DNA of 64,000 nucleotides. Origin: Coriobacteriia bacterium. GTDB lineage: Bacteria > Actinomycetota > Coriobacteriia > Anaerosomatales > JAJZPX01. The first letter of the stretch is position 1. Each line of letters opens with the position of its first letter. Below, one piece after another: positions 2,224 through 60,753 of this stretch. The stretch covers positions 35,631 to 99,630 of the forward strand of contig DASXUP010000009.1 in assembly GCA_036504755.1 (NCBI GenBank), read 5' to 3'. Under the pieces are notes generated by a model that was given only the letters and a program-made list of their open reading frames with translations, was not told the DNA's origin and made no database searches. The position numbers and the translations under genes were made by a program.

Positions 2224-2263
2224 CCGTCTTCCCGCTGTAAGTCGCAGGCGGAGGGGCCCGAGC

Positions 2264-4347: not shown

Positions 4348-4371
4348 TCGGCACAAGAGACCGGGATCGAG

Positions 4372-4538: not shown

Positions 4539-4559
4539 TGAGACTCCGGGAAGCGAGGA

Positions 4560-4575
4560 GGTTTCACGTGAAACA
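4560..4575. promoter_or_regulatory. parS: parS centromere-like site (one mismatch)
   Basis: gGTTTCACGTGAAACA, 21 nt downstream of the first site and about 45 nt upstream of rsmG-parA-parB. Confidence 0.75.
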
Positions 4576-4618
4576 TCCCGCCGCGGCGATGTAGTATCGT
4601 CAGCGACGGGAGGCCTCG

Positions 4619-5323: not shown

Positions 5324-5399
5324 CCGGCTGACGGCTTCCCCTGGCTTCGGGGCTCTTCTATACTGGCCGATAGTCCGTTCGTCGGAGGAAGGGGGCTTG

Positions 5400-7059: not shown

Positions 7060-7352
7060 GGCGGAACACGTCGTACCTGATAATCGGCCTGATCGTCGGC
7101 GCGACGTTCGGGTTCGTCGCGGGTCTTCTCTGGGCGCCGCGAAGCGGAGCCCAGACACGCCGTCGTCTCGCAGGTGAGGCGAGGAGAGTGGCCGAGACCG
7201 CCCGCTCCGTCGCGGAGCGTGCCGAGGCGGCCGCCGAGATCCTCGGGGAGAGAGTGGACCGCTACCTCGGCAGGGACGAAGAGGTCGCGTGGCGCAAGGT
7301 CCGTCAGATCCGCGAGGGTGTCGAGCGCTACACGCAGACCCAGGTCCCGTAG
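7056..7352 (+). CDS. YtxH-like small membrane-anchored protein
   Basis: ORF track 7056..7352. N-terminal TM helix plus the YtxH signature LLWAPRSGAQTRRRL. GTGA overlap with parB. Confidence 0.6.
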   Translation: MRRNTSYLIIGLIVGATFGFVAGLLWAPRSGAQTRRRLAGEARRVAETARSVAERAEAAAEILGERVDRYLGRDEEVAWRKVRQIREGVERYTQTQVP

Positions 7353-7407
7353 GTCCCATGTCGGTGCGGCATGCTAGCGTCTCCCTGTCCGAAGGGAGGG
7401 GAGAGGC

Positions 7408-20426: not shown

Positions 20427-23102
20427 TCAGCGCGCCCTCCGCACCTTCACAAGGTCGATGACCGCGATGGGGAGTAGCGCCGCCACGAGCACCGCGAGCC
20501 AGTCGGTCGCGGCCAGCGGGACCGTGGCGAACACCTGCCGGAGCGCGGGCACGTACAGCACCAGCGCCTGCAGGCTCATCGAGCCGAGGAGCGCGGCCAC
20601 GAGCCAGCGGTTGCACAGCGACGATGCGCTCCAAACGGAACGCGTCTCGCTGCGGAGACCGAACGCGTGCAGCAGCTGCACGAGCACCATCGCCGTGAAC
20701 AGCATGGTGCGGGCGCGCTCCGGAGAGTGACCGGGCATCAGGACCTGCCCCCACACGAACACCAGAAGTCCCGCCGCCGTCAGCAGGGAGCCTTGCCAGA
20801 GGATCTGGATCTGCCGACGACGCACGAGTATGCCCTCCTCGGCCGAACGGGGCGCGCGGTCCATGATGCGGCGTCCGGGAGGGTCGACGCCGAGAGCCAG
20901 CGCGGGAAGGCCGTCGGTCACGAGGTTGATCCACAGCAGCTGGAGCGGGAGGAGCACGGGGGTGGGCGAGAAGAACGTGGTGACGAAGACGATGAGCACC
21001 TCGGAGACGTTGCACGACAGCAGGAAGAGGATGACCTTGCGCAAGTTGTCGAAGACCATGCGGCCCTCGCGCACCGCCTCGACTATCGTGGCGAAGTCGT
21101 CGTCGGCGAGGACCATGTCCGACGCTTCGCGGCTGACGTCCGTCCCCACGAGACCCATCGCCACGCCGATGTCCGCGCGCTTGAGCGCCGGCGCGTCGTT
21201 CACGCCGTCGCCCGTCATCGCGACCACCTCGCCGTGCGACTTCAGCGCGTCGACTATCCGCAGCTTGTGGGCCGGGTCCACCCGCGCGTACACGCGGACG
21301 TCCTCGACGGCTGCCGCCAGCGCCTCGTCGCTCATCCGCTCGAGCTCGGCGCCGGTGACGACGCGCTCGCCCTCCTCGAGCAGCCCGATCTCGGTGCCGA
21401 TCGCGCGGGCGGTCAGCGCCTGGTCGCCGGTGATCATCGCGACCTCGATGCCGGCTCGGCGGCACGTCGCCAGCGCTTCCGGCACCTCCGCACGCGGCGG
21501 GTCCACGAGCCCCAGGAGCCCGACGTAGGTCATGCCGGTCTCGAGGACTTCGTCTTCCGGCAGCGGGTCCTCGGCTGACAGCTCCCGCATCGCCACGGCC
21601 AGAGTCCGGTACCCCTTAGAGGCCAGCGACTCGTCCTGCCCGTGGATGAGCAGCAGGAGCTCCTCGGTCATCGCCGTCGTCTCGCCGTGCACGCGCGCGT
21701 GCGTGCACAGGCCCAGGACGACGTCGGCGCCACCCTTCATGTACGCGACGCGGCGGTCATCGACCGCGTGCACCGTCGTCATCCGCTTGCGCTCCGAGTC
21801 GAACGGCACCTCGGCTATGCGGCGCGGGCGCAGGCGCTCGGGCGCCGCGAGGTTGTCGGCCGCCGCGAGCAGCGCCGTCTCGGTCGGATCGCCGAGGTAC
21901 CCGCCGCCCTCGAGCGGCTCGGCGTCGTTGCAGGACGCGGCGATGGCCAGCACGAGCGCGCGGTCGGCCGCGTCGGGGACGCGATCCGCGGGGCGCTCGG
22001 CCCAGTCCGGCAGGATCTCGACGGGGTCGGTCCCGACGAGGATGCTGCGCACGCGCATCTCGTTACGCGTCAGCGTCCCCGTCTTGTCCGAGCAGATGAA
22101 GGTGGTGGAGCCGAGCGTCTCGACCGCGTGCAGCTTGCGAACGATGGCGTTGTGCTCGGCCATCCGGCGCACGCCGAGGGAGAGAGCGACGGTCACTATG
22201 GCGGGGAGGCCTTCGGGGATGGCCGCCACCGCGAGCGAGATCGCGACCAGCAGGGCGACGGTGAGTCCTCGGCTGAGAGGCACTCCCGCCCTCGACGCCT
22301 GCCAGATGCCCACGGCGAACACCGCGACCGCGACCGCGAGCACGAGGAGTGCGATGCGCTTGCCTACGCTCTTGAGTTCGCGCTGCAGCGGCGTCGGCTC
22401 GTTCTCCTGGGCGTCCAGCATCTCGGCGATGCGCCCGACCTCGGTCGTGCCGGCGGTCTCCGTCACGACGAAGCGGCCGCGGCCGACGGCCACCGAGGTG
22501 CTGGCGTACACCATGTCGCGCCGGTCGCCGAGCACGAGCCGCTCGTCCGGGAGCGGCTCGACGTGCTTCGCGGCGGGCACGCTCTCACCCGTGAGCGACG
22601 ACTCGTCCACTCGCAGCGCGGCGGCCTCGACCAGGCGGCCGTCGGCGGGGATGTTGTCGCCCGCGGCGAGCACCACGATGTCGCCGGGGACGAGCATCGC
22701 GGCGGCGAGCTGCTGCTGACGTCCGTCGCGCACGACCGTGGCGAGGGGCGCCGCCATCTCACGCAGCGCCTCCATCGCGCGCTCCGCTCGCGACTCCTGG
22801 AGGAAGCCGAGGATGCCGTTCAGCAGGAGGATCGTGAGGATGGCGACGGCGTCGAGGAGCTCGCCCTCGAACGCGGAGATGAGCACGGCGACGGCGAGCA
22901 CCCAGATCATGAAGTCGTTGAACTGCCCGGCGAATCGCCTCCACGCGGGCGTGCGGACGGAGGCGCGGAGCTGGTTCGGGCCCGCGGCCGCCAGTCGTGC
23001 GACAGCTTCGGGCGAGGTCAACCCCGCGGACGGGTCGGACCCGAGCGCTTCGAGCACCAGGTCGGGCGTCATCGCGTGCCACGGGCCACGGGTCTCGGCC
23101 AA
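20427..23102 (-). CDS. P-type ATPase, P2A (SERCA/PMCA-like, probably Ca2+-translocating)
   Basis: ORF 20427..23321 (-). Motifs ICSDKTGTLT, TGDGVNDAPALK and PEGLPAIVTV (the P2 signature). Start placed at TTG 23102 (GAGGAGGA upstream); ATG 23072 is the alternative. Upstream in-frame sequence rejected because of a terminator-like hairpin. Confidence 0.88.
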   Translation of the reverse strand: MAETRGPWHAMTPDLVLEALGSDPSAGLTSPEAVARLAAAGPNQLRASVRTPAWRRFAGQFNDFMIWVLAVAVLISAFEGELLDAVAILTILLLNGILGFLQESRAERAMEALREMAAPLATVVRDGRQQQLAAAMLVPGDIVVLAAGDNIPADGRLVEAAALRVDESSLTGESVPAAKHVEPLPDERLVLGDRRDMVYASTSVAVGRGRFVVTETAGTTEVGRIAEMLDAQENEPTPLQRELKSVGKRIALLVLAVAVAVFAVGIWQASRAGVPLSRGLTVALLVAISLAVAAIPEGLPAIVTVALSLGVRRMAEHNAIVRKLHAVETLGSTTFICSDKTGTLTRNEMRVRSILVGTDPVEILPDWAERPADRVPDAADRALVLAIAASCNDAEPLEGGGYLGDPTETALLAAADNLAAPERLRPRRIAEVPFDSERKRMTTVHAVDDRRVAYMKGGADVVLGLCTHARVHGETTAMTEELLLLIHGQDESLASKGYRTLAVAMRELSAEDPLPEDEVLETGMTYVGLLGLVDPPRAEVPEALATCRRAGIEVAMITGDQALTARAIGTEIGLLEEGERVVTGAELERMSDEALAAAVEDVRVYARVDPAHKLRIVDALKSHGEVVAMTGDGVNDAPALKRADIGVAMGLVGTDVSREASDMVLADDDFATIVEAVREGRMVFDNLRKVILFLLSCNVSEVLIVFVTTFFSPTPVLLPLQLLWINLVTDGLPALALGVDPPGRRIMDRAPRSAEEGILVRRRQIQILWQGSLLTAAGLLVFVWGQVLMPGHSPERARTMLFTAMVLVQLLHAFGLRSETRSVWSASSLCNRWLVAALLGSMSLQALVLYVPALRQVFATVPLAATDWLAVLVAALLPIAVIDLVKVRRAR

Positions 23103-23116
23103 CTGCTCCTCCTCGA

Positions 23117-23157
23117 CGAAAAGAGACCTCCGGTGGGGTTGTCCCACCGAAGGTCTC
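23117..23157 (-). terminator. Terminator/attenuator-like hairpin in the ATPase 5' leader
   Basis: On the minus strand: GAGACCTtCGGTGGG-acaac-CCCACCGgAGGTCTC followed by TTTTCG. It ends 15 nt before the TTG start. Confidence 0.4.
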
Positions 23158-23365
23158 GCGCTCACATCCGTGAAGGCAGGGCCGGGGCTTCTCGCCCGGG
23201 TATGTCGGCCTGCCCTCCCGCTCTCGCGGGCCGCTACTCCCCTTCGTTGCGCCATCGTACCAGACCGGCCGAGGCGCTCATCGTCGCGACCGTTCGTCAC
23301 GGGATGAGACCCGCTCGGCAAGTCCTAACCTATAGATATCGGCTCGTGAAGCGAATCACTTTACA

Positions 23366-23395
23366 TCTATAGGAGAATTAACCATAAATAAGCAA
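23366..23395 (-). promoter_or_regulatory. Putative promoter of the P-type ATPase
   Basis: On the minus strand: TTGCTT (23395-23390), 18-nt spacer, TATAGA (23371-23366), in the only AT-rich patch of the region. This would give a leader of about 250 nt. Confidence 0.35.
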
Positions 23396-23568
23396 GCGAC
23401 AGACAGGGGCCGGGCCCAGCGGCCCCTGTCCTATCGCTTCCACTACTTGCAACGACAGGCCCGACGGGAGCCGAGCTCACCAGCTCGGCATAGGGCCGCA
23501 AACGTGCGCGACGAGGCTCAGGGGCGACCTTGCCGGCGCAGAAGCGCATCGAGCGAGGGGGATCCATC

Positions 23569-25734
23569 ATGACCGTCTTTCCTTGGCGACGCCCGACACG
23601 CCCCGTCATCAGGGCGGTGATGGTCGGCTGCGCGGCGCTCGCGCTCGTGATGGCCTCGGCCGCCTCGGCGTTCGCCGCGACCGCGTTCACCAACGCGGCG
23701 CCCACGGCAGTGCCTAACACCGTGAACCTGAACAGCGTCACGGTGCAGGTCCATGCGTCCGACCCGGCCGAGATCCGCTCGGCGTCGTTGACGCTCGACG
23801 GCGTCGCGAAGACGCCGGCGGTGAACTACGACGGATACTGGACGGGCAACGGATGCGACACGTGGTTCGTCGCCGACCCCACGAACGCCACCGTCTCGTA
23901 CAAGATCCCGTCGGCGGCGGTCGGCCCGCACGAAGTCACCGTGAGCGTGACGAACGGAGCAGGTGCGGTCGCGTCGGAGTCGTGGTCGTTCTCCGTCGCG
24001 GGGCCGGATACGACCTTCACCACGGCAACGCCGGCCCCCGGATCCACGATCACCGTATGGGATCCGGCCATCGGCGTCTCGCTCCAGGACCCCGCGGGCG
24101 TCTCCGACGGGCCGAGCGTGACGCTCGACGGCGTGACGCATCCCGTGGCCATGCTCTTCGGCGATCAGCGCATCAGCATGGACACCTGGAACGACATCAT
24201 CTACAACGCTCTTCCGTGGGAAGTGCCGACGGTCGACTGGTCGAAGGGCTACGTCACGTTCACGCCCTCGAGCCTTCCGGACGGCCCCCACGAAGTGACG
24301 GTGAGGGCGGGCAACAACACCGGTCGTACGGCGACCCATTCCTGGTCCTTCACCGTGGCGGCCCCGCCGAAGATCACGGCCATGCTTCCCGTGGATGGCA
24401 GCAGCGTCCCGACGCAGAGCCCGAGGATCTCGGCGAACGTCGCGGACAACGGCACGATCGCTTCGATGAAGATGCTCGTGGACGGCGCACAGGTCCCGGC
24501 GACCTACGATTCGACCACGAAGACGTTCAGTTACGCGCCCGGGCCTCTGTCGAACGACCGCCAGCACACCGTGCGCGTCGAGGCCACGGATGCGGGGGGC
24601 CTGAAGGCGACCGCCGAGTGGAAGTTCACGGTGCAGGTCTACGCGGACATGCCGGTGAGCTCTACCTGCGAGACTTGCCACGACGCCACCAAGCACCCGA
24701 TGAGCAAGTGCGAGGCGTGCCACAACGTCGTCTACATCGGCCATGGCCCAGGAGGGCCGGTCTCGTGGTGTCTCACGTGCCACCACATCGGCAGCCACGG
24801 TCCGAACGTCATCATCCCCGGCGTCACGTGGGGTGGCGGCGACACGCCACAGCCTGGCTACACCGGCTACTGGGGGAACTACTGCGACTACTGCCACAAC
24901 GCGAAGTACGCGAGCATCCCCCGGCATCCCGACGACAACGCGGCCTTCCACGACACCAAGGCCGACGTGTCCGCGTGCGCCCCGTGTCACGTGAGATCCC
25001 TGACGCGCGAGCACTACCGCTACGCCAAGGACGGCAAGCAGCTCTCCTGCGACATCTGTCATGGGCCGAACGCGCCCGACAAGGTGAAGGCCGCGGTCTC
25101 GTCCGGCGACACGGCGTGTACCGCGTGCCACGACTTCGCATCGAGCGGCGACCCGCACGAGGCCGTCCACACGCCGACCGGACTCAGCTGGCAGTGCACC
25201 ATGTGCCACACGGACTCGCTCATCAGCGAGCACATGACGAACTGGACGTCGAGCGGCAAGGGCATCGGCTGTCAGAGCTGTCACGCGTCCGTGGACGGTC
25301 GCGTCGTCTGGGCGATATTCGCCGGAGACAAGAAGTGCTCAGCCTGCCACGTGAGCGCGCACGCCCTCGGTCTCGCGCCGGCGCCGACGGGGATACCGCA
25401 GTATCCGGGGTATCGCTGGTCGCAGCCGATCGACACCACCCTGTTCGCGGGCGAGAGCTGGCTCGCTCCCGGCTTCGCCACCAGAGGGCTCGTCATCGTC
25501 TCGGACCGCCGCACCGACGTGACCCCGGCCCAGGTGTGGGAGTTCTACGCCGGGCAGATGCCGGCCGCCGGATGGATGCTCGCTTCGGGAGCGCCCGCCA
25601 GCGGAGACACGGCGTTCAAGGCGACGTTCACCAAGGGAAGCCACAGCGTGGTCCTGTGGTGCTACGGCGGAGAGGGTCATGCGGCCGCCCCGGTGGTAAG
25701 CACCGGATACCGCGTCGAGGTGCTCTACAGGTAG
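23569..25734 (+). CDS. Secreted multiheme c-type cytochrome-like protein: signal peptide, 3 Ig-like repeats, 10 CxxCH motifs, C-terminal domain of unknown function
   Basis: Frame of ORF 23530..25734 from ATG 23569 (GAGGGGGA upstream). Signal peptide RAVMVGCAALALVMASAASAFA. Repeats ending SWSFSVAG, HSWSFTVAA and AEWKFTVQV. Heme motifs CETCH, CEACH, CLTCH, CDYCH, CAPCH, CDICH, CTACH, CTMCH, CQSCH and CSACH, spanning nt 24667-25350. Confidence 0.8.
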   Translation: MTVFPWRRPTRPVIRAVMVGCAALALVMASAASAFAATAFTNAAPTAVPNTVNLNSVTVQVHASDPAEIRSASLTLDGVAKTPAVNYDGYWTGNGCDTWFVADPTNATVSYKIPSAAVGPHEVTVSVTNGAGAVASESWSFSVAGPDTTFTTATPAPGSTITVWDPAIGVSLQDPAGVSDGPSVTLDGVTHPVAMLFGDQRISMDTWNDIIYNALPWEVPTVDWSKGYVTFTPSSLPDGPHEVTVRAGNNTGRTATHSWSFTVAAPPKITAMLPVDGSSVPTQSPRISANVADNGTIASMKMLVDGAQVPATYDSTTKTFSYAPGPLSNDRQHTVRVEATDAGGLKATAEWKFTVQVYADMPVSSTCETCHDATKHPMSKCEACHNVVYIGHGPGGPVSWCLTCHHIGSHGPNVIIPGVTWGGGDTPQPGYTGYWGNYCDYCHNAKYASIPRHPDDNAAFHDTKADVSACAPCHVRSLTREHYRYAKDGKQLSCDICHGPNAPDKVKAAVSSGDTACTACHDFASSGDPHEAVHTPTGLSWQCTMCHTDSLISEHMTNWTSSGKGIGCQSCHASVDGRVVWAIFAGDKKCSACHVSAHALGLAPAPTGIPQYPGYRWSQPIDTTLFAGESWLAPGFATRGLVIVSDRRTDVTPAQVWEFYAGQMPAAGWMLASGAPASGDTAFKATFTKGSHSVVLWCYGGEGHAAAPVVSTGYRVEVLYR

Positions 25735-25754
25735 CGGGCGGCATCGCCGTCATC

Positions 25755-25788
25755 GGAAGGCCGGGTCCCGAAAGGGGTCCGGTCTTCC
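25755..25788. terminator. Bidirectional terminator-like hairpin (GAAA tetraloop) between the cytochrome gene and sdaAA
   Basis: GGAAGGCCGGGTCCC-gaaa-GGGGTCCGGTCTTCC, a 15-bp stem including G-U pairs. Confidence 0.55.
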
Positions 25789-25792
25789 CGCG

Positions 25793-26644
25793 TCACCCGC
25801 CGCAGCAGCTCCTGCCGGTAGGCGTCGCGGCGAGGCCTCCGAGTGCCGTCTCACGCAGCGAGGGGGGCAGACTGCGTCCGACCGCACCGAGAGCGTCGAT
25901 CACCTCGTCGAGCGGGATCGGGAAAATCACGCCCGCGAGAGCCATCTCGACCGCCGCCATCGCCACCGCGGCGCCCGTGGCGTTGCGGACCACGCACGGG
26001 ACCTCGACGAGACCGGCGACCGGGTCGCACACGAGGCCCAGCAGCCCCTGCAGCGCGAGCGCCGCGGCGTGCCCCGCCTGCTCCGGCGAGCCCCCCGCCA
26101 GCTCCGTCGCGGCGGCTGCCGCCATGGCGGCGCCGGATCCGACCTCGGCCTGACATCCGCCTGACGCCCCCGAGAGCGTCGCTCGCGCGGCGATCACGCC
26201 GCCGATCCCGCCGGCCGCCGCCAGCGCGCTCACGACCTGCTCTCGGGATGCGGACGTGCGCTGCGCGGTCGTCAGCAGCAGCGCCGGCAGCACGCCCGAA
26301 GCGCCGGCGGTGGGTGCGGCGACGATACGGCCCATCGCGGCGTTCACCTCGCCTGTGGCGAGCGCCGCCGCCAGCGCAGTGTCGAACCCTTCACCGAACA
26401 GCCGAGGGGCCTCGGCCGACACCTTGGCAGCGTCACCGCCCACTAGGCCCGAGCGCGACCGGGCCTCGCCGGACAGGCCGCGGCTCACGGCGTCCTCCAT
26501 CACGCCCAGCGCCTCGGCGAACCGCGCTTCGATCCGGCCGGCCGGCACGCCGGTCTCTTCCGCCTCGAGCGCGATGACGGCGGCGCCGAGCGATCCGCGC
26601 GCGGTCGCGTCGGCGAGGAGTGATGCGAACGAGGCGTGCGCCAT
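25793..26644 (-). CDS. sdaAA: L-serine ammonia-lyase (Fe-S dependent), alpha subunit
   Basis: ORF track 25793..26644 (-). Motifs AAPTAGASGVLPA, GASGGCQAEVGSGAAMAAAA and LVCDPVAGLVEVPCVVRNA are typical of SdaAA. Confidence 0.9.
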   Translation of the reverse strand: MAHASFASLLADATARGSLGAAVIALEAEETGVPAGRIEARFAEALGVMEDAVSRGLSGEARSRSGLVGGDAAKVSAEAPRLFGEGFDTALAAALATGEVNAAMGRIVAAPTAGASGVLPALLLTTAQRTSASREQVVSALAAAGGIGGVIAARATLSGASGGCQAEVGSGAAMAAAAATELAGGSPEQAGHAAALALQGLLGLVCDPVAGLVEVPCVVRNATGAAVAMAAVEMALAGVIFPIPLDEVIDALGAVGRSLPPSLRETALGGLAATPTGRSCCGG

Positions 26645-26798: not shown

Positions 26799-27101
26799 AT
26801 GGGGAACACGCGCAAGAGCAAGGCCGAGAACGCTCCGCCAGCCGAGGTCTGCGAGGGCTGCGAGCTGCGGTGCACTCTCGACCAGGCGAAGCGCGGCGAC
26901 AAGATGGTCGTGCTCGGCGTCGACGACGACCGCGCGCGCATCCACGCCATCCGTTTCGGGATGGGCGAGGGTGCGTGCGTCCAATGCGTCACCCGCATCC
27001 CAGCCGGCCCCATCGTGCTCCGCAGCGGACGGCAGGAGATCGCCGTCGGCCGCGAGCTCGCGAAGCGCATCACGGTGAGGCCGCAGACCGAGAAGGACTG
27101 A
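26799..27101 (+). CDS. feoA: Ferrous iron transport protein A (FeoA, SH3-like)
   Basis: ORF track 26799..27101. Sequence GDKMVVLGV...IRFGMGEGACVQCV...GPIVLRSGRQEIAVGRELAKRITV. Immediately precedes feoB. Confidence 0.8.
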   Translation: MGNTRKSKAENAPPAEVCEGCELRCTLDQAKRGDKMVVLGVDDDRARIHAIRFGMGEGACVQCVTRIPAGPIVLRSGRQEIAVGRELAKRITVRPQTEKD

Positions 27102-29141: not shown

Positions 29142-31010
29142 TTAGGCGCTGGCGGCTTGCCGCGCGCGGGCGCGCCTCGCCTCGAAGCCGGGGGCGACCT
29201 CCTCGAACAGCGCGAACAGCGCGGCGCGGTCGTTCTCCTCGGCCGCCTCGATCATCTCCGCGATGCGCTCGACGATCGGACTCCCGAGCACGGGCAGCGA
29301 CGTGAGGACGAGGATCTTCTCGTGCCTGGACGGCAGGACGCTCTCGGACGCTCCCGTGAGCACCTCGTGCAGCTTCTCGCCGGGGCGCAGACCCGTGAAC
29401 ACGATCTCGATCCGCGCGCCGCTGAGCGCGATCATCTTCTTGGCGAGATCGAGGATCCGCACAGGCTCGCCCATGTCGAGGACGAACACGTCCGTTCGCC
29501 GGCTGAACGCCTGCGCCTGGAGCACGAGACTCGCGGCCTCGGGGATCGTCATGAAGTAGCGGGTGACCTCGGGGTGGGTGACCTGCAGCGGGCCGCCGCG
29601 ACGCAGCTGCGTCTCGAAGATCGGGACGACGCTGCTCCTGCTGCCCAAGACGTTGCCGAACCGCACGATGCAGCCTGACAGGCCGTTGGCACAGTAGTGC
29701 AGCGTGAGCAGCTCGCCCACGTGCTTCGTCAGCCCCATGACGCTCGACGGCTCGACCGCTTTGTCCGTCGAGATGAACACGAAACGGCTGACGCCCTTGG
29801 TGCGCGCAGCATCGAGCAGGTTCCGCGTACCGAGGACGTTGGTCAGCACCGCCTCGGCGGGCGCGAGCTCCATGAGCGGGACATGCTTGTACGCCGCGGC
29901 GTGCAGCACGAGGTCCACGGGCTCCTCGTCGAAGATCGCGTCCACTCTGCGCCGGTCGCGGATGTCGGCGATCCGCATCACGAAGACGTCCGGCGCCGAC
30001 TCGCGCAGCTCGAGCCAGGTGTCGTAGAGGCGCGACTCGTCGATGTCCACCATCACCACCCGAGCCGGGCCATGACGCAGGACGTTCCGGCAGAGCTCCG
30101 AGCCGATCGAACCCGCGGCGCCGGTGATCATCACCACGCGCGCGTTGATCGATCCGGCGAGGCTGTCCAGATCGAGGCGCACCGGCTCTCGGCCGAGAAG
30201 GTCCTCGATGCGCACCGCATGGAAATCCGACAAGCCGAAACCATGACCTGAAGCCAGCGACGTCGTGGTCTTGGTGGGGACGCCGGCCTTGGTGCAGATG
30301 TCGAGGATGCGGCGGCGCTCCTCAGGCCGCGCGGAGGGCAGGGCGACGAAGACCTCGTCGACCCGCAAGGACTCGATCCGATCGGCGAGAGTGCCGATCG
30401 GGCCCAGGACTCGAACGCCCCTGAGCCGGCGCCCGACCTTGCTCGTGTCGTCGTCGAGGAAGCCGGCCACGCGCAGCCCGAGCTGCGGCTGGTTCTCGAT
30501 GTCACGCAGCAGCAGCGAGCCCGCGTCGCCGGCGCCGATGACGAGCACGTTGCGCGCGTCGCGAGAGGGTACCCGGGCCCGGAACCACGCATTCGTGCGG
30601 ACGATGCCGCGCACCGCCGAGGTGCCCACGAGCGTGTAGGCGGTCGCGATGAACACGATCCCCACGGGCAGGAGCCGGTGCCCGCCTCTCATCTGCCAGC
30701 CGAGGTCGGTGACGACGAGGAGGACGCTTCCGGACAGGCACGCGCCGATGACCTTGAGGAAAGTGTCGATCCCGATGTAGCGCCAGACGTGGCGGTACAG
30801 GTCGAAGAGCATGAACACGCCGAGGAAGACGACCATCGCCAGAGCGGTCGCGAACCAGCGGCTCTGCTGGAACTCCGGCGTCGGGGGTCCGCCGAAGCGG
30901 CTGAAGTAGGCGAACTGCATCGACAAGAACACGATCAGCGCGTCGACGGCGAAAAGGCTCAGGCCGAGGCCCTCGGCCCTCGCTCTGATCCTGGAGACGA
31001 GGTCACGCAC
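29142..31010 (-). CDS. Membrane-bound NDP-sugar 4,6-dehydratase, CapD/PglF/WbpM family
   Basis: ORF track 29142..31010 (-). Four N-terminal TM helices. Rossmann motif ITGAAGSIGSEL. STDKAVEPSSVMGLTK (SYK-type active-site region). Confidence 0.85.
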   Translation of the reverse strand: MRDLVSRIRARAEGLGLSLFAVDALIVFLSMQFAYFSRFGGPPTPEFQQSRWFATALAMVVFLGVFMLFDLYRHVWRYIGIDTFLKVIGACLSGSVLLVVTDLGWQMRGGHRLLPVGIVFIATAYTLVGTSAVRGIVRTNAWFRARVPSRDARNVLVIGAGDAGSLLLRDIENQPQLGLRVAGFLDDDTSKVGRRLRGVRVLGPIGTLADRIESLRVDEVFVALPSARPEERRRILDICTKAGVPTKTTTSLASGHGFGLSDFHAVRIEDLLGREPVRLDLDSLAGSINARVVMITGAAGSIGSELCRNVLRHGPARVVMVDIDESRLYDTWLELRESAPDVFVMRIADIRDRRRVDAIFDEEPVDLVLHAAAYKHVPLMELAPAEAVLTNVLGTRNLLDAARTKGVSRFVFISTDKAVEPSSVMGLTKHVGELLTLHYCANGLSGCIVRFGNVLGSRSSVVPIFETQLRRGGPLQVTHPEVTRYFMTIPEAASLVLQAQAFSRRTDVFVLDMGEPVRILDLAKKMIALSGARIEIVFTGLRPGEKLHEVLTGASESVLPSRHEKILVLTSLPVLGSPIVERIAEMIEAAEENDRAALFALFEEVAPGFEARRARARQAASA

Positions 31011-32223
31011 GGGACGCCCTCCCGAGGACCTTGGTGAGCGCCGAGCACCCGTCGGCCATGTCGCCTTCGGAAAGCGTGGGATGGACGAGGAACATCAGCG
31101 ACGTCTCCCCGAGCTCGCGTGCCACGGGCAGCGGCTCGAGCGGCGCGAGTCCGGAGCGCACGAACGCCTGCTCCCGGTAGATCTCGGCGCAGGCGCCCAC
31201 TCCGCACGGCCAGCCCTCGGCGGAGACCGCCTCTGCGATGCGGTCGCGCGTCCAGCCCTCCGCGAGGTGCTCCGGCTCGACGAACGCGTAGAACTTGTAG
31301 AAGGCGTGCCCGGCCTCGGCGGGCGACGCGGCGACCCGGATGGCCGGGAACTCGCGCAGGCACGACGCGAGGGCCGCGGCGTTCGCGCGGCGCCGCTCGA
31401 TCCATCCGTCGACCTTCGGCAGGCAGGTCCGGCCGATCGCCGCTTGCAGCTCGGTCATGCGCCAGTTGGTCCCGAACGCGTCGTGCAGCCACCGGAACTC
31501 CGTGGACGGTCCGCCGCGCTCGTTCATCGCCGCCGGCGTCTTGCCGTGATCCTTGAAGGACCACGCGCGCTCCCAGACACCGTCGTCGCCGGTCACGAGC
31601 ATCCCGCCCTCGCCGCCGGTGGTCAAGATCTTGTCCTGGCAGAAGGAGAAGGCGGCGGCGTCGCTCCGGCAGCCCACCCTGCGACCGCCGTACGTCGCCC
31701 CCAGCGCCTGCGCGCAGTCCTCGATGACGTACGCGCCCCGCTCTCGGGCGACGCCGGCGATCGCGTCGATGTCGGCAGGCCAACCGGCGAGGTGCACGGC
31801 GATGACGGCGCGCGTCCGGTCGGTCATCGCGGCGGCGACGGTCGCAGCGGTCACGTTCTGGCTGTCGCGATCGACGTCGGCGAACACGGGTCGTGCACCG
31901 CGCATGACCACCGCGCTCGCCGAGGCCACGAACGTCCGCGGCGGGACGACGACGTCGTCGTCCGGACCTACCCCGAGCGCCTCGAGCGCGAGCTCCAAGG
32001 CGACGGTGCCGTTCGCGACGGCGACGGCGTGACGAGCCCCCACGAACTCCGCGAACTCGCGCTCGAACGCGCGGCCCTCCTCGCCGGTCCAGTAGTTCAC
32101 CCGTCCCGAGCGCAGCACGCGTTCGGCCGAGGCGATCTCGTCGTCGGCGAAGAACGGCCACGGGGGCAGGGGGGCGGTCCGGACGGGCATACCGCCGTCC
32201 ACGGCAAGCTGAGCAAGGGTCAT
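31003..32223 (-). CDS. DegT/DnrJ/EryC1/StrS (PglE-like) PLP-dependent sugar aminotransferase
   Basis: ORF 31003..32388 (-) from MTLAQL (ATG 32223). Sequence FSFCQDKILTTGGEGGMLVT contains the PLP-lysine region. Confidence 0.85.
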   Translation of the reverse strand: MTLAQLAVDGGMPVRTAPLPPWPFFADDEIASAERVLRSGRVNYWTGEEGRAFEREFAEFVGARHAVAVANGTVALELALEALGVGPDDDVVVPPRTFVASASAVVMRGARPVFADVDRDSQNVTAATVAAAMTDRTRAVIAVHLAGWPADIDAIAGVARERGAYVIEDCAQALGATYGGRRVGCRSDAAAFSFCQDKILTTGGEGGMLVTGDDGVWERAWSFKDHGKTPAAMNERGGPSTEFRWLHDAFGTNWRMTELQAAIGRTCLPKVDGWIERRRANAAALASCLREFPAIRVAASPAEAGHAFYKFYAFVEPEHLAEGWTRDRIAEAVSAEGWPCGVGACAEIYREQAFVRSGLAPLEPLPVARELGETSLMFLVHPTLSEGDMADGCSALTKVLGRASRA

Positions 32224-32849
32224 TCGCCGGCTCCACGTGGCGTCTTCGCGGACAGGGGGCGAGCGGGCACGCCCACCACAGTCTGACCCGGGAGGACATC
32301 CTTTGTCACGACCGCGCCCGCACCTGTCACGGCGCCGTCGCCCACCCGGCAGCCCGGGAGGACGACGGCCGAGGTCCCGCACGTGCACGCCGAGCCGACG
32401 GCGCTGAAGCCTCCGAGCCGAACCCCGCTCGCGAGGTGGCAGTGCGCGCCGACCTTGCAGTCGTGGGCGACGTAGCAGCCGACGTTGAGGAGCACGTTCT
32501 CGGCCACGCGCGCGTTCGCGCTCACCGCCGTGAACGGCATGACGAGACTCGCATCGCCCAGCACCGCCGATGGGCTGACGATCGCGCTCGGGTCGACGAG
32601 CGCGGGCAGCAGGAAGCGGCCGTGCGTCATCGAGAAGAACCGCGCACGGAGCGTCGGGTCCCCGACGGCGATCACAGCCGCGTCAGCTCGAACGCCGTCC
32701 AGTGAGGACACGACCGGAAGCCCGGAGGGGTCGTGCGTCTCGGCCTCGGCGGACTCGGAGAAGAACGCCGAGGGGGTGTGCCCGAGCCGGACGAGCATGT
32801 CGGCGACTTCGCGGGAGAACCCTCCTGCTCCCATCACGAGGAACCTCAT
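32220..32849 (-). CDS. NeuD/PglD-family sugar N-acetyltransferase (left-handed beta-helix)
   Basis: C-terminal 209 aa of ORF 32220..33677 (-), starting MRFLVMGAGGFSREV (Rossmann-like N-domain), then hexapeptide repeats (NVGCYVAHDCKVGAHCHLASGVRLGG). ATGA-type overlaps on both sides. Confidence 0.8.
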   Translation of the reverse strand: MRFLVMGAGGFSREVADMLVRLGHTPSAFFSESAEAETHDPSGLPVVSSLDGVRADAAVIAVGDPTLRARFFSMTHGRFLLPALVDPSAIVSPSAVLGDASLVMPFTAVSANARVAENVLLNVGCYVAHDCKVGAHCHLASGVRLGGFSAVGSACTCGTSAVVLPGCRVGDGAVTGAGAVVTKDVLPGQTVVGVPARPLSAKTPRGAGE

Positions 32850-33490
32850 GGCGTCAGCGTCTCGGTAGGCTCGGGCGTGCCGGTGAAGCGCGGCATGCCG
32901 ACGCCGCCGGCGTGCCCGATCCCTTCGCCGGAGACCACGCTCACGAACGTCGCGCCCAGGATCCTGAGGTCTTCGGCGAATGACGCCCGATCGACGTAGC
33001 GCACGTCGAACTCGAACCGCTCCTCCCAGTTCAGCGAATTGCGACCGTTGACCTGCGCGAGGCCGGTGATCCCCGGCTTCACGAGGTGCCGGCGCGTCTG
33101 CTCGGCGTTGTAGAGCGGCAGGTACTCGACGAGCAGCGGACGCGGGCCCACCAGGCTCATCTCGCCGCGCAGCACGTTCCACAGTTGGGGCAGCTCGTCG
33201 ATGCTCGTGCGCCGGAGGAAGCTCCCCACGGCGGTCACGCGCTCGTCGTCGGGGAGCGGCCGCCCGTCGGGGCCGGTCTCGTCGCGCATCGTGCGCAGCT
33301 TGATGAGGCCGAAGGGCTTCCCGCCGAGGCCGGCTCGTTCCTGCCGGAACACGATGGGGCTTCCGATGAAGAGCCTGACGGCGGCGGCCGCGGGCAGCAG
33401 CACGGGCGCCACCACCACGAGCCCCACCGACGACACGAGAAGGTCCAGACCGCGCTTGACGGATCGGTAGAAGGACAAGACGGATGACAC
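32846..33490 (-). CDS. Small monotopic phosphoglycosyl transferase (PglC/WbaP-C-terminal family, 'bacterial sugar transferase')
   Basis: ORF track 32846..33490 (-). Motifs KRGLDLLVSSVGLVV, FRQERAGLGGKPFGLIKLRTM, DELPQLWNVLRGEMSLVGPRP. Confidence 0.85.
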   Translation of the reverse strand: MSSVLSFYRSVKRGLDLLVSSVGLVVVAPVLLPAAAAVRLFIGSPIVFRQERAGLGGKPFGLIKLRTMRDETGPDGRPLPDDERVTAVGSFLRRTSIDELPQLWNVLRGEMSLVGPRPLLVEYLPLYNAEQTRRHLVKPGITGLAQVNGRNSLNWEERFEFDVRYVDRASFAEDLRILGATFVSVVSGEGIGHAGGVGMPRFTGTPEPTETLTP

Positions 33491-33580
33491 CTCCGCTACG
33501 CAGGATAGCCTTTGGGGCCGTCCCGCGCGACCGCATCAGCCGCTCGCTCGTCGCCTCCGCCCGCGCCGGAAGCCTGTAGA

Positions 33581-34807
33581 ATGTGTGCGTCCGCTGCACA
33601 GCGGCCTCCCGACCCCGCAGGTGACGCCTTGCGCGAAGACAGCACCGCCCCCTCGACGTCCGGCGACGCACCCTCACGACCCCTGCGCCTGCTGGTCGTG
33701 TCGCACCTCTACCCGTCCGACGGCAAGCGCAGCTGGGGGGTGTTCGTCCGCGAGCAGATAGGCGCTCTCGGCGACGCCGCCGAGGCTACCCTGGTCGTCG
33801 GACGCTACACGCCCCGCGCGGGGCGCGCGCCGGCGTTCCCGCCGGCCAACGGCCGCCTCGTCGAGGTCGACCTGCCGTGGGTGCGCTGGCTGCCCTCGTT
33901 CCTCAAGGTGGCGTGGGCCGTGCCCGCGTACTACGCCGGGGCGCTGCGCGCCGCGCGCGCGCAGGAGCGCCCGTTCGACGTCGTGCACGCGTTCTACGGC
34001 TTCCCGGACGGCGTGGTAGGCATCATGCTCGGCCGAAAGCTCGGGCTCCCGGTCGTGGTGACGCTGCTCGGCGCCGACTTCAACCGCCAGCTCGCGCGGC
34101 CCGGCGCGGGCGGCATCATCGGAAGGCTGCTGTCGCGCGCCCGGTTCATCATCGGCGTGAGCTCCGGCATCGTGGACGGGATGCGCGAGCGGTTCGTGCT
34201 GAGCGAGCGGCAGGTCGTCCGCCTGCCGAACGGCTACAACGACAGCGAGATCCGCGTCCACGCGCCGCGCCGCGCCGAGTACTTCCTCTTCGTCGCGAGC
34301 CTCATCCCCAGGAAGAACCCCGACGTGCTGCTGCGCGCGTACGCCGGCATCGCCGCCGAGGTGCCGCTCGACCTCGTCATCGTCGGCGACGGGCCGATGA
34401 TGGGGCAGTTGCGCGAGATGGTGCGCGAGCTCGGGATCGGGTCTCGCGTGCGCTTCGAGGGCGAGCGCGATCACTCCGAGCTCGACGGCTACCTTGCGAA
34501 GGCCGCGGCGTACGTCCTTCCGAGCAGCAGCGAAGGCCTCGCCGTGGCGGTGAACGAAGCGCTCGCGTCGGGCACGCCCGTGATCGCGACGGACATCCCC
34601 GGGACGCGCGAGCAGGTCACCTCGGAAGCGTTGGGATACCTCGTGCCGGTCGGAGATGCCGAGGCCCTCGCCGAGGCGCTCCTGCGGGCGGCACGGACGC
34701 CGTGGGACCACGCGCGCATCGCCGCGGAGTGCGGCGTGCTCACGTGGCGGGAGCACGGGCGCGAGCTGCTGCGGATCTATCGAGAGGCCGCGGAGGGTGC
34801 CGGGTGA
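33581..34807 (+). CDS. Glycosyltransferase family 4 (GT-B, group 1)
   Basis: Frame of ORF 33512..34807. Sequence SSSEGLAVAVNEALASGTPVIATDIPGTRE (E-x7-E region). The start is uncertain: ATG 33581 has no SD, and TTG 33629 follows AGGTGA. Confidence 0.75.
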   Translation: MCASAAQRPPDPAGDALREDSTAPSTSGDAPSRPLRLLVVSHLYPSDGKRSWGVFVREQIGALGDAAEATLVVGRYTPRAGRAPAFPPANGRLVEVDLPWVRWLPSFLKVAWAVPAYYAGALRAARAQERPFDVVHAFYGFPDGVVGIMLGRKLGLPVVVTLLGADFNRQLARPGAGGIIGRLLSRARFIIGVSSGIVDGMRERFVLSERQVVRLPNGYNDSEIRVHAPRRAEYFLFVASLIPRKNPDVLLRAYAGIAAEVPLDLVIVGDGPMMGQLREMVRELGIGSRVRFEGERDHSELDGYLAKAAAYVLPSSSEGLAVAVNEALASGTPVIATDIPGTREQVTSEALGYLVPVGDAEALAEALLRAARTPWDHARIAAECGVLTWREHGRELLRIYREAAEGAG

Positions 34808-35913
34808 GCGGCGAGCCGTCGGTCGCATACCTGTGCCTCCAGGCCGCCCGGCAGGGGCAGGCGAGCTATGCGCACGTGCACGAGATCGTCGACGGACTGC
34901 GCCGCCGAGGCCTCGGCGTGACCCTGTTCGACGTCGCTTACGCCGCCGAGGGGGCCCGCGTGCCGGGACCGGCCGGACGGCTGCTGGAGTTCAGGCGGAC
35001 CCAGCGCCGGCTGGCCGCTTCCTCGCTCGGCGCGGACGCCGTCTACGTGCGGGCCCATCCGGCGGCGAGGCCGACGTCGCGGTGGGCGCGCGGCCTCGGG
35101 ATCCCGGTGGTGCAGGAGGTGAACGGCCCCTACGCCGACGTCTTCGCCGCGTGGCCGGCCATGCGCCCGTTCGAGCGGTGGTTGGTCGCCGCGATGCGCG
35201 AGCAGTACCGTGCCGCCGACGCGCTCATCACCGTGACGCCGCAGCTCGCCGAGTGGCTCTCCGCCGAGACGGGCCGCTCGGACGTGCACGTGATCCCGAA
35301 CGGCGCCAACACCTCCGTCTTCACGCCCGGCGCGCCGCGGCGCTCCGGCCTGCCCGGCCGCTACGCGGTCTTCTTCGGCGCGTTCGCCCCCTGGCAGGGC
35401 ATCGGCACGCTGCTCGAGGCGCTCCGCCGGCCCCAGTGGCCTGCCGGGGTGTCCCTCGTGCTGGTTGGCGACGGGGCGGAGAGACCGGCGGTCGCTGAGG
35501 CAGCCGCGGAAGATCCGCGCGTGGTCTACCTCGGCGGCTTGGGGTATCGCGAGCTGCCGGGCGTGGTGGCGGGGGCGCTCGCTGGCGTCGTGCCGGCGGC
35601 CGGCGGCCGGGCGGCCACCGGGCTGTCGCCGCTGAAGCTGTACGAGACGCTGGCGTGCGGCGTGCCCGCGATCGTCACCGACTTCCCGGGGCAGGCCGAC
35701 CTCGTCCGCGACCGCGGCACCGGCCTGGTGGTGCCGCCCGAGGACCCCGCCGCGCTGGCCTCGGCCGTGGCTACTCTCGCCGGGAGCCCGCAGGAGGCGG
35801 TCGCCATGGGCCGCCGAGGGCGCGAGGTCGTGGCGGCGGAGCACTCGTGGGACGCGCGCGCCGCCGCGACCGCCGAGGTGATCGCGTCGGTGGTGGAGGC
35901 GCGCCGCCGATGA
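34804..35913 (+). CDS. Glycosyltransferase family 4
   Basis: Frame of ORF 33877..35913 from GTG 34804 (GTGA overlap with the previous gene). Sequence GLSPLKLYETLACGVPAIVTDFPGQAD. Confidence 0.75.
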   Translation: MSGEPSVAYLCLQAARQGQASYAHVHEIVDGLRRRGLGVTLFDVAYAAEGARVPGPAGRLLEFRRTQRRLAASSLGADAVYVRAHPAARPTSRWARGLGIPVVQEVNGPYADVFAAWPAMRPFERWLVAAMREQYRAADALITVTPQLAEWLSAETGRSDVHVIPNGANTSVFTPGAPRRSGLPGRYAVFFGAFAPWQGIGTLLEALRRPQWPAGVSLVLVGDGAERPAVAEAAAEDPRVVYLGGLGYRELPGVVAGALAGVVPAAGGRAATGLSPLKLYETLACGVPAIVTDFPGQADLVRDRGTGLVVPPEDPAALASAVATLAGSPQEAVAMGRRGREVVAAEHSWDARAAATAEVIASVVEARRR

Positions 35914-37061: not shown

Positions 37062-37172
37062 CCGCCGCGCTCGTCCCGTACTCGTCACGAGGCCGCCTCG
37101 AGATGCCGATACTAACGTCGGACGGCGCCGTGACCCGGCGCCGGGACCCGCAACGGATCCGGAGGCGACCGC

Positions 37173-42680: not shown

Positions 42681-42794
42681 CTCACTCGTTCTCGTCGGGC
42701 GCCTCCGGACAACGGCTCGGTTACCGATCCCGTCGGGCCATGCGATAATCAGTGACTATACACCATGGTCCGACCCCTTTCGGAGGCTCCCGCG

Positions 42795-58405: not shown

Positions 58406-59374
58406 TCACCCCGCCACCGAGTGCGCACCCGGGACGACGTACGTCGTCAGGTACGTAAGCACGAGCGCGACGAACGACAGCACGGCGAGCACGGCCACCC
58501 ACTTCCACATGCCCTCCCTGCGCAGGTACAGCCGGCCGTGCAGGTACGCGGTGTACAGCAGCCACAGCAGGATCGACATGTCGACCTTGCCCGACCACCA
58601 CCACGCCTCGCCGCGCCAGGACATGAGCGCCCACGGGAAGCCGAGGAGCATCCCGATCGTGAGCGGCAGATAGCCGAGGCGCGCCCATCTGTACGCGGTG
58701 GTCTCGTATGCGGCGCGTCGCTCCCGCAGCATCAGCACGACCGCCGCGAAGCTGACCACGAAGGCGCCGTAGCAGAAGAAGAGCAGCGGTGGATGCACCC
58801 ACATATACCAGGTGTCGTAGTAGTAGCGGCGCATCGAGTCCAGCTGCTGGAACGCCGCGAACCACGCCGGGCCGTTCCCCGATCCCTGCGCCGCGAGGTA
58901 GCCCTTCAGGCTGGCCAGGAAGTCGGGCAGCGGGTGCGTGAACGGCCGGCCGATGAGGACCGCGCCCACCGTGAGCGCCGACACGGATCCCCCGAGGTAC
59001 GGTTCCATCTCGCGAGCGTGCCGGCGGGCGAGCAGGGTCATCGCCACGAGGATGAGCGCCCACACGTACAGCTTCTCGGACTCCGTCCAAGGCGCCACGA
59101 AGATGCGGCCCGTGGTCGCGCCCGTCCGAGGGTCGACGAGCGCGCTCGCCTCCCACAACCGCCAGTGGAACCACACGAGCAGGCCCTCGCCGAACACGAG
59201 CAGCGCGCCGAGGACGGCGAGTGCCGGCCGGAGCCACTCGCGGCGCAGCCGCGTGACGGCGAGGCCGAAGACGACGACGGAAGCTATCAGGAGCGCGTAG
59301 CCCAGCGGCGCTCCCAGGAGGGCCAGGGTGCTCTGGGCGCCGTCGAGGATGGCGGCGGGCTCGGCCGAGGACAT
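58406..59374 (-). CDS. Cytochrome c assembly protein, CcsA/ResC family
   Basis: ORF 58406..59533 (-) from ATG 59374 (GGAAGGAAGGG upstream). Trp-rich segment GFPWALMSWRGEAWWWSGKVDMSILLWLLYTAYLHGRL, with the conserved His after the WWD-like helix. Confidence 0.72.
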   Translation of the reverse strand: MSSAEPAAILDGAQSTLALLGAPLGYALLIASVVVFGLAVTRLRREWLRPALAVLGALLVFGEGLLVWFHWRLWEASALVDPRTGATTGRIFVAPWTESEKLYVWALILVAMTLLARRHAREMEPYLGGSVSALTVGAVLIGRPFTHPLPDFLASLKGYLAAQGSGNGPAWFAAFQQLDSMRRYYYDTWYMWVHPPLLFFCYGAFVVSFAAVVLMLRERRAAYETTAYRWARLGYLPLTIGMLLGFPWALMSWRGEAWWWSGKVDMSILLWLLYTAYLHGRLYLRREGMWKWVAVLAVLSFVALVLTYLTTYVVPGAHSVAG

Positions 59375-59493
59375 CGTGCCCTTCCTTCCGGGAACGCGTC
59401 GAGTATACCCGCCGTTCGCGGCGCGCCATTTGCTGGTCATCCGCCTCGGCGCTACACTTCGCCTCGTGGCTCCCGGCAGAGCGCGCGCCCGAC

Positions 59494-60753
59494 GTGGATG
59501 GAAGGTACGTCTTGAGTCCCAGTCGTCTGGCAAAGAGCATCATGCGCCGCCTGCGGGTCACTTCTCGCGAGCAGCCTACCCAGTACGACATCGAGGCTCT
59601 GGAGGAGAACGTCCGGCGAGTGGCGCTCGTCATCCGGTTCCGGTGGATGCTAGTCGGCGCGCTCGCCGTGTTCTCCCTCGCGGCGGCGGCGATCTTCGGT
59701 CTCGATCCCTCGACGCCGCGCTCCGAGTTGCTCGCCAACATGTGGATCCCCGCGGCCGCTCTGGTGTTCGTGCTGGCGTACAACACGTACTACCAGCTGA
59801 CCGTCCGCTACCTCGGCAACATCGCGGTCCTCAATCATGCCCAGCTGCTGTTCGACACGCTCGTCATCACCGTGCTCGTACACTACAGTGGCGGCGTCTA
59901 CTCGTGGTTCCATACGATCTACGCCCTCATCGTGCTCGAAGCAGCGTTCATCTTCAGGCGCTCTCGCGACACGTGGCTGGTAGCCGGAGCGGCGGCGATC
60001 GCGTACGGCGCGACGGTCCTGAGCGAGTACACGGGCCTGATAGGGCACGTCGCGATGCCCTTCGTCGGCCGAGGGCTCGAGCACGCGGCGCCATACGCGG
60101 CGGTGCGTTTCCTGTGGATGGTCGCCGTCCTGGGCGGGACCGCGCTCATCTCGCTTCAGATGATGTCGCGGGTGCACCAGCGCGAGCAGCAGCTGACGGC
60201 GTCTTCGATGACGGACGAGGCCACGGGCCTCTACAACCGCTCCTACTTCCAGCACAAGCTCGGCGTCGAGGTCCAGCGTGCGCGCTGCTACGGGATGGGT
60301 CTCGGGGTCCTGCTGCTCGACGTGGACGACTTCGGCGGCTTCAACCGGCGTTTCGGCATCGACGCGGGCAACCGGTTGATCCGCAGACTGGCCGAGTTGC
60401 TCAAGGCCGAGACGTGCGCGTGCCCGGATTGCGCCGCCGCGGAGCTCAACACGATCGGACGCTTCGGGGGCGAGGAGTTCGCGATCATAATGCCCCAGCC
60501 GCCGGGGATGACGATCGACGCGGTGGCGGCTGACGCCCACGCGCTCGCCGAGAGGCTGCGGACGAAGATCGGAGCACTGCGGGTGGACGACATGGGCGTC
60601 ACCGTGAGCATCGGCGTCGCGCACTTCCCGTCCGACGGGCGCACGGCCGCGGACCTGATGGCCTCCGCCGACCAGGCCGTGTTCCGCGCCAACTCCGAAG
60701 GCGGCAACCGCGTGGCGACCTCGGACGAGCCCGACCTGGGGGCGGCGCTGTAG
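59494..60753 (+). CDS. Membrane diguanylate cyclase (GGDEF domain, GGEEF active site)
   Basis: ORF track 59494..60753. Five or six N-terminal TM helices. Motifs DEATGLYNRSYF and GRFGGEEFAIIMP. The start is uncertain (ATG 59542 is possible). Confidence 0.8.
   Translation: MDGRYVLSPSRLAKSIMRRLRVTSREQPTQYDIEALEENVRRVALVIRFRWMLVGALAVFSLAAAAIFGLDPSTPRSELLANMWIPAAALVFVLAYNTYYQLTVRYLGNIAVLNHAQLLFDTLVITVLVHYSGGVYSWFHTIYALIVLEAAFIFRRSRDTWLVAGAAAIAYGATVLSEYTGLIGHVAMPFVGRGLEHAAPYAAVRFLWMVAVLGGTALISLQMMSRVHQREQQLTASSMTDEATGLYNRSYFQHKLGVEVQRARCYGMGLGVLLLDVDDFGGFNRRFGIDAGNRLIRRLAELLKAETCACPDCAAAELNTIGRFGGEEFAIIMPQPPGMTIDAVAADAHALAERLRTKIGALRVDDMGVTVSIGVAHFPSDGRTAADLMASADQAVFRANSEGGNRVATSDEPDLGAAL

Follow-up and report, generated by a model that had tools for sequence, protein, structure and literature searches.

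A 64,000-nucleotide stretch of genomic DNA from a Coriobacteriia bacterium (contig DASXUP010000009.1; the whole stretch is called the window below) contains, on its forward strand, a gene for a 721-residue protein in which a putative export signal, three immunoglobulin (Ig)-like domains, ten heme-binding CxxCH motifs and a C-terminal domain homologous to the AF_1845 family follow one another. Because the ten motifs and nine histidines outside them are conserved in homologues, this decaheme protein is, as judged by sequence comparison, a real c-type multiheme electron-transfer protein. We propose, with a probability of roughly 0.6, that it serves as an extracytoplasmic conduit of electrons in extracellular electron transfer (EET) by its monoderm Coriobacteriia host. 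Electron transfer outside the membrane had been suggested in an earlier note on this DNA, written from the nucleotide sequence alone, and is still the best reading of an exported protein that combines multiple hemes with Ig-like domains. The new oxidoreductase that the note offered as an alternative is disfavoured, as the distal ligands approximately equal the hemes in number and the protein has no similarity to catalytic multiheme enzymes.

The CxxCH motifs, for which the count of ten in the earlier note proved exact, begin at residues 367, 381, 401, 439, 470, 494, 517, 543, 568 and 590 and together span residues 367–594 (228 residues; nucleotides 24667–25350). They take up 20 of the 23 cysteines of the protein, which also has 29 histidines. 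A six-frame scan of the window (~128,000 codons) revealed CxxCH at two other places; the cluster is therefore far beyond chance. Two Pfam families matched the module above their cut-offs, Cytochrome_C7 (PF14522; 31.7 bits versus 24.8) and Cytochrom_c3_2 (PF14537; 27.1 bits versus 25). In an alignment of five sequences sharing 43–59% identity, all ten motifs were invariant, as were histidines 376, 392, 410, 453, 461, 482, 530, 534 and 555. The wider survey of motif conservation that the note had recommended gave the same picture: among 41 diverse family members all motif positions were kept, with heme 3 present in 30 of the 41. The candidate distal histidines that the note had pointed out also held up, nine non-motif histidines being conserved in 27–41 of the 41 members (H482 and H534 in 41, H461 in 40, H555 in 39, H530 in 38, H376, H410 and H453 in 31 each, and H598 in 27). 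Methionines 361 and 378 are frequent among these members, and histidines 392 and 406 are specific to the clade of the window protein. The presence of about one conserved distal ligand per heme argues for the pattern expected of six-coordinate electron-transfer hemes. Between hemes 3 and 4, the clade carries an insertion (residues 411–438; ~24799–24882) with the sequence IIPGVTWGGGDxPQPGYTGYWG, which has no counterpart in Bacillota members. A scan of the Joint Genome Institute (JGI) metagenome collection with the five-sequence alignment returned one weak locus, so relatives bearing the insertion are nearly absent there.

The protein belongs to a large family. An exhaustive HMMER search with residues 358–721 against 1.84 billion representatives of clusters formed at 50% identity gave matches in 419 clusters at E<=1e-3 and in 111 at E<=1e-30. 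The same C-terminal domain was found in 121 of 161 retrieved proteins. Of the 79 full-length members that have a hydrophobic segment at the N-terminus, 75 carry it and end 120–145 residues after the last CxxCH, a layout that fits the window protein, whose last motif lies 131 residues from the end. Full-length members range from 358 to 1725 residues, are mostly of low-GC-type composition and have a modal heme count of ten (38 of 79). Since the spacing is shared by 75 of the 79 members while the N-terminal lengths vary, the constant unit of the family is a set of about ten hemes plus the AF_1845 domain, to which the Ig-like part is added at the N-terminus as a variable extension. By the same comparison, the AF_1845 domain is a hallmark of this large family.

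At the level of individual members, a protein identical to that of the window is listed in NCBI, on a 111-kb contig, as 'MAG TPA: Ig-like domain-containing protein [Coriobacteriia bacterium]', and two orthologues of 723 and 725 residues (59% and 54% identity) share its whole architecture. In longer relatives, the Ig-like part is retained together with hemes 1–9, and further hemes follow. Other members are labelled in NCBI as 'hypothetical protein' or 'FlgD immunoglobulin-like domain containing protein'. To survey the taxonomic spread, GTDB representative genomes were searched for a degenerate DNA pattern encoding the C-terminal motif WFYGGExH...GYRxE, and eight loci matched: two in the Actinomycetota metagenome-assembled genome (MAG) Kmv33, one in a Thermincola MAG, others in three further Bacillota MAGs, one of which has two, and one in an Anaerolineae MAG. 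A profile scan of genome contigs with the five-sequence alignment found no relative. A gene for an octaheme protein of ~600 residues precedes the family gene in two genomes, the Thermincola MAG and Firmicutes UBA2595 (6213–8000 at locus L005 and 1648–3540 at locus L009); its product ends in ...CH(D/K)CHGGSP.AAAH and is a possible partner of the family member, but the gene is absent beside the decaheme gene of the window. At another locus (L003, 1280–4426), an open reading frame (ORF) of 118 codons encodes an AF_1845 domain only, and a 679-residue ORF overlaps a 184-residue ORF with three hemes and AF_1845, followed by a ZIP metal permease gene; the two overlapping ORFs probably represent a single family gene disrupted by a frameshift.

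The N-terminal half of the protein combines a putative export signal with Ig-like domains that resemble those of surface adhesins. The export signal recognised in the earlier note is present as the sole hydrophobic segment (residues 10–41), preceded by arginines and followed by AFA|A, a site that we read from the sequence by eye and that is kept as AFA-A(A)TF in the homologues of the five-sequence alignment. Residues 1–36 would be a Sec signal peptide or possibly an anchor that is not cleaved off. A lipoprotein reading was rejected: Cys21 lies inside the hydrophobic core with Arg15 too near, and it is not conserved. The three repeats of ~100 residues described in the note, ending in SWSFSVAG, HSWSFTVAA and AEWKFTVQV, formed beta-sandwiches in an AlphaFold2 model of the whole protein (18-sequence alignment; mean predicted local distance difference test (pLDDT) score 77.8), mostly with pLDDT >90. 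A Foldseek comparison of the model with the PDB retrieved tandem Ig adhesins such as SiiE (2yn3, E 3e-11), PrgB and titin. The assignment of the three repeats to Big_5-like modules in the note was not borne out; no Big_5 match appeared even at E<=10, and domains 2 and 3 instead matched Big_13 (PF19077; 35.6 bits versus a cut-off of 27) and Big_7 (PF17957; 32.3 bits versus 24.1). Domain 1, with the last strand SWSFSV, contains the clade-specific motif GYWxGxGCDxW(F/Y)V (residues 89–103; ~23833–23877) with the lone conserved Cys96; this motif is repeated 2–3 times in longer relatives (P0006, P0007 and P0010).

The last ~115 residues, which had been left without assignment, could be placed through homologues. 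Precomputed annotations assign PF27226 (AF_1845) to the homologues P0015, P0044 and P0148 and, faintly, to P0002, and the C-terminal domain of the window protein is 46–83% identical, over its full length, to those of PF27226 carriers. The precomputed annotation of the identical protein (P0001) lacks PF27226, and our Pfam scan gave no direct match because the family is newer than the Pfam copy used. The domain was moderately confident in the whole-protein model; modelled separately, it gave a pLDDT of 80.5 and a predicted template modelling score (pTM) of 0.74, with four main beta strands and one long helix. This model resembled no solved structure significantly (best E 0.19), and sequence searches of the PDB with the whole protein and with a C-terminal profile found nothing. 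We found no paper on PF27226 or AF_1845.

The lineage of the host makes a multiheme protein less unexpected than it might seem. The rarity of c-type hemes in high-GC Gram-positive bacteria, from which the earlier note had argued, does not apply here, because relatives in the OPB41 group (order Anaerosomatales, class Coriobacteriia) are rich in multiheme cytochromes: two cultured members with GC contents of 66.6–67.7% encode 18 and 17 of them, which are scattered in the genome and are predicted to reside at the membrane or cell surface and to have a role in Fe(III) reduction, and one Anaerosomatales isolate is an obligate Fe(III) reducer (PMC9686372). For this reason, the gene is less surprising than the note held. 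The window genome is of the same class as the cultured Anaerosomatales Anaerosoma tenue and Parvivirga hydrogeniphila; the combination of Ig-like domains, decaheme module and AF_1845 is not described in the paper on them (PMC9686372). Two adjacent regulators of the PafB/PafC WYL/WCX type, typical of Actinomycetota, are encoded in the window (48506–50603, minus strand) and support its actinobacterial origin.

We then compared the protein with cytochromes already described. Among solved structures in the PDB, the best match to a profile of the heme module was GSU1996 of Geobacter (3OV0; 9.4e-12), followed by 28pb_A, an unnamed cytochrome c entry (1.7e-10), MtrA (6r2q_A; 1.2e-6) and, weakly, MtrF (1.1e-5); the resemblance to GSU1996 and MtrA is remote. 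GSU1996 is a c7-type polymer, and the likeness, which arises through repeated triheme-like units, rests on repeated short stretches only. Thermincola CwcA, modelled on the GSU1996 template, has been suggested to conduct electrons across the wall of Gram-positive cells (PMC7911101); unlike the window protein, GSU1996 and CwcA have neither an Ig-like stalk nor the C-terminal domain. The match to Shewanella MtrA, a DmsE family protein (PDB 6R2Q chain A), joins profile positions 25–219 to residues 64–261 and so covers the greater part of the heme chain in each. MtrA likewise carries ten CxxCH motifs in ~250 residues with mostly histidine distal ligands, and its role as a linear electron wire is presumed for the window protein too; in contrast to MtrA, the latter has no porin partner, its host has no outer membrane, and the Ig-like and AF_1845 domains are extra. 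Membership in the DmsE/MtrA family (TIGR03508) was rejected on a partial match (residues 437–596) of 34.9 bits versus a cut-off of 192.2. MtrC, OmcA and MtrF show a comparable mix of heme and non-heme beta domains at the cell surface. However, MtrC interleaves beta-barrels with two pentaheme domains, whereas the window protein has three Ig-like domains followed by a single ten-heme module, and it has no lipoprotein anchor. Envelope type and proposed job are shared with ImdcA, PdcA and OcwA of Thermincola and with OmhA and SmhA-C of Carboxydothermus. Identity with ImdcA or PdcA (sequences from the supplement of PMC7911101) was rejected, the similarity being ~30 bits of biased motif matches only and both proteins lacking AF_1845; OcwA-type enzymes gave no match in the solved-structure searches.

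The presence in the window of a gene for a CcsA-like maturation protein, claimed in the earlier note, was confirmed, with the qualification that the protein is divergent. It matches Cytochrom_C_asm and has the tryptophan-rich motif WRGEAWWWSG flanked by VHPP and YLHGR, that is, with conserved histidines around it, but it scored 44 bits against the NCBIfam CcsA-type equivalog, versus a cut-off of 187.6, and has no ResB/CcsB partner in the window. It is a possible maturation factor for the decaheme protein. The segment 57810–59533 (minus strand) comprises this gene and then one for a 195-residue polytopic membrane protein without a family match; the two might form a split or novel heme-handling system. 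The second CxxCH membrane protein mentioned in the note corresponds to a small ORF at ~53950–54315 (plus strand). In its ~120-residue product, which has no match in Pfam or NCBIfam, a single transmembrane helix lies at the N-terminus and the sequence GCRCH...CSSCH at the C-terminus. A membrane metallophosphoesterase gene follows closely downstream of the ORF, whose G+C content at third codon positions (GC3) favours coding.

From the motifs, their conservation, the domain folds and the family distribution, we propose the following course for export, heme attachment, location and partners. The unfolded protein would leave the cell through Sec, and a system II machinery (CcsA/ResC-type) would attach hemes to the ten CxxCH motifs on the outer face of the membrane; the signal sequence would be cut at AFA|A or kept as an anchor. 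The ten hemes, mostly bis-histidine and low-spin, would make up a chain of the c7/MtrA type. The three Ig-like domains could serve as a non-conducting stalk or an adhesion module, of a length highly variable across the family, and the AF_1845 domain, immediately after heme 10, could be a module for docking, anchoring or acceptor contact.

Several observations weigh against this proposal. Neither the direction of electron flow nor the acceptor can be deduced from the sequence. The heme region of the AlphaFold2 model, built without hemes, has pLDDT values of 35–85, too low for inspection of heme packing. Within the 721 residues there is no LPxTG-type sortase motif and no N-terminal lipobox, and a Pfam scan of the protein gave no SLH or CWB2 domain. 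No ResB/CcsB gene occurs in the 64-kb window, where the maturation pathway is therefore incomplete, and no conserved operon partner (a quinol dehydrogenase, another cytochrome or a porin) lies beside the gene or its close homologues. We found no experimental work on any family member in the literature.

The same architecture could be used in reverse, for the uptake of electrons, with Fe(II), minerals, electrodes or a syntrophic partner as the donor. In principle, multiheme wires can run both ways, as exemplified by the Mtr and Mto systems; no feature of the sequence sets the direction, and some family members come from subsurface and mud-volcano MAGs, settings in which interspecies electron transfer is discussed. 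We nevertheless consider uptake unlikely, as the cultured relatives are hydrogen- or formate-oxidising reducers of Fe(III) or sulfur and not iron oxidisers (PMC9686372).

A second explanation is an assimilatory ferric reductase, which would reduce extracellular Fe(III) to Fe(II) for import by the nearby FeoAB. On the same strand, ~1 kb downstream, are the genes for FeoA (26799–27101) and FeoB (to 28957), which keep an iron-acquisition reading weakly alive; the ZIP metal permease gene adjoining the family member at locus L003, and a DtxR-type iron regulator with a FeoA domain ~5 kb from the homologue P0009, point the same way. However, the decaheme gene shares no operon with feo, since a hairpin and the convergent gene for serine dehydratase lie between them, no metal-uptake genes neighbour the other homologues inspected, and no Fur/IdeR-like box was recognised upstream of the gene. 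Besides, a simple assimilatory enzyme needs fewer than ten hemes. We thus see a role in iron assimilation as improbable.

We attach as little weight to a catalytic multiheme oxidoreductase acting on a soluble nitrogen, sulfur or metalloid compound, with AF_1845 as the substrate site. Such an enzyme would account for a conserved C-terminal domain without a known fold directly after heme 10, and for the finding that only nine non-motif histidines are broadly conserved for ten hemes, H598 being kept in just 27 of 41 members. Yet the missing ligand could be Met361 or Met378, or the clade-specific His392 or His406; the protein sequence contains no CxxCK or other unusual heme motif, and similarity to enzymes of the NrfA, HAO, OTR and OcwA types is limited to generic motif matches. 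Finally, that the protein is mainly a surface adhesin with unmatured or vestigial heme motifs, as its NCBI name (just 'Ig-like domain-containing protein'), the divergent CcsA-like gene and the lack of ResB in the window might suggest, is highly improbable, given that motif cysteines and histidines and distal histidines are strictly conserved across distant phyla and that the heme and AF_1845 core is constant in the family while the Ig-like part varies.

To our knowledge, electron export to minerals or electrodes across a thick wall without an outer membrane is known from only a few proteins of Thermincola and Carboxydothermus. The gene described here points to a family of more than 400 clusters (50% identity) that is publicly labelled 'hypothetical' or 'Ig-like', and none of the papers that our literature search listed on multiheme cytochromes in Gram-positive EET mentions Ig-like domains. 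Tentatively, and with more doubt than we hold about the conduit role of the single protein, we suggest that a decaheme and AF_1845 core on a variable Ig-like stalk might represent a distinct class of wall-spanning or tip-located conduits in monoderm anaerobes of the Bacillota, Actinomycetota and Chloroflexota, with AF_1845 as a new functional element for acceptor contact, partner docking or wall anchoring. If the family were such a general monoderm conduit, it would provide a marker by which electroactive lineages, whether Gram-positive, actinobacterial or Chloroflexota, could be recognised in metagenomes from the subsurface, as well as a defined target for structural and genetic work.

Table 1. 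Positions in the window of the decaheme gene, the parts of its product and related features
Feature	Position	Strand	Basis
Coding sequence, 721-residue protein, stop codon included	23569..25734	+	ORF listing, composition, NCBI match
Shine-Dalgarno-like GAGGGGGA	23555..23562	+	6 nt upstream of ATG 23569
Putative signal sequence, residues 1–36	23569..23676	+	Arg-rich n-region, hydrophobic segment, AFA|A
Ig-like domain 1, residues 39–143	23683..23997	+	model, Foldseek; weak Big_9 and PKD matches
Ig-like domain 2, residues 149–263, Big_13, last strand HSWSFTV	24013..24357	+	Pfam, model, Foldseek
Ig-like domain 3, residues 268–355, Big_7, last strand EWKFTV	24370..24633	+	Pfam, model, Foldseek
Decaheme module, residues 358–600	24640..25368	+	ten CxxCH, Pfam Cytochrome_C7 and Cytochrom_c3_2
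C-terminal alpha/beta domain, residues 603–721, homologous to Pfam PF27226 (AF_1845)	25375..25731	+	homologue annotation, alignment, model
15-bp GC-rich hairpin	25755..25788	.	between convergent cytochrome and sdaAA genes
Divergent CcsA/ResC-like heme-handling protein	58406..59533	-	Cytochrom_C_asm, Pfam 79.7 bits

The ORF is real. Its frame is open from an upstream TTG (23530–25734, plus strand), and the ATG at 23569 yields the 721-residue product; the homologues in the five-sequence alignment start at about the same place, and CGAGGGGGA also occurs upstream of the orthologue at locus L001. The GC3 of 0.89 is within the range of other genes in the window, whose GC content is 63–74%. The gene is flanked by a divergent gene for a Ca-type P-type ATPase (20427–23321, minus strand) and a convergent gene for the L-serine dehydratase alpha subunit (sdaAA; 25793–26644, minus strand). 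Because both neighbours are on the opposite strand, the gene is monocistronic, as the earlier note had it; only the convergent serine dehydratase gene is kept in the neighbourhood of the nearest orthologue.

The note had further placed the gene between a promoter region and a strong hairpin. The hairpin was found: the 76-nt stretch 25725–25800 that includes it folds with -41.2 kcal/mol (z -3.3), and it is a probable bidirectional terminator, although it has no T tract and was missed by a terminator scan based on T tracts. The promoter region found no such backing, no sigma-70-like promoter for the decaheme gene having been detected in a promoter scan, and an Rfam search of the 5′ leader gave no family match. 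Conservation between the upstream regions of this gene and the orthologue at L001 is limited to the ribosome-binding site and a GGAATTAA box. The intergenic region between the ATPase and cytochrome genes contains a long hairpin of ~20 bp (23394–23439; pairs I1 and I3 combined) and a second one of 8 bp (23470–23489); this hairpin region has no Rfam match and is not kept upstream of the L001 orthologue. In an AT-rich patch at 23329–23373, a perfect 9-nt inverted repeat (CCTATAGAT ... ATCTATAGG) has 27 nt between its arms; its 8-mer CTATAGAT has no second copy in the window (expected 0.04), and it may be a regulator site of the divergent promoters.

Elsewhere in the window, a right-handed beta-helix protein of ~990 residues with three CWB2 cell-wall-binding repeats is encoded at 37134–40118 (plus strand), within a cluster (29142–43826) whose other genes encode a LytR-CpsA-Psr ligase, a flippase-like protein, glycosyltransferases, a sugar aminotransferase and a dehydratase of polysaccharide synthesis. 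The arrangement suggests that a secondary wall polymer holds the surface proteins of the host; the decaheme protein itself has no CWB2. The first part of the window (1–7060) is a chromosome-origin neighbourhood with dnaA (3–572, minus strand), yidC, jag/khpB, rsmG (gidB), parA and parB, and the GC content falls to 0.63 in the first 4 kb. The whole window contains one tRNA gene.

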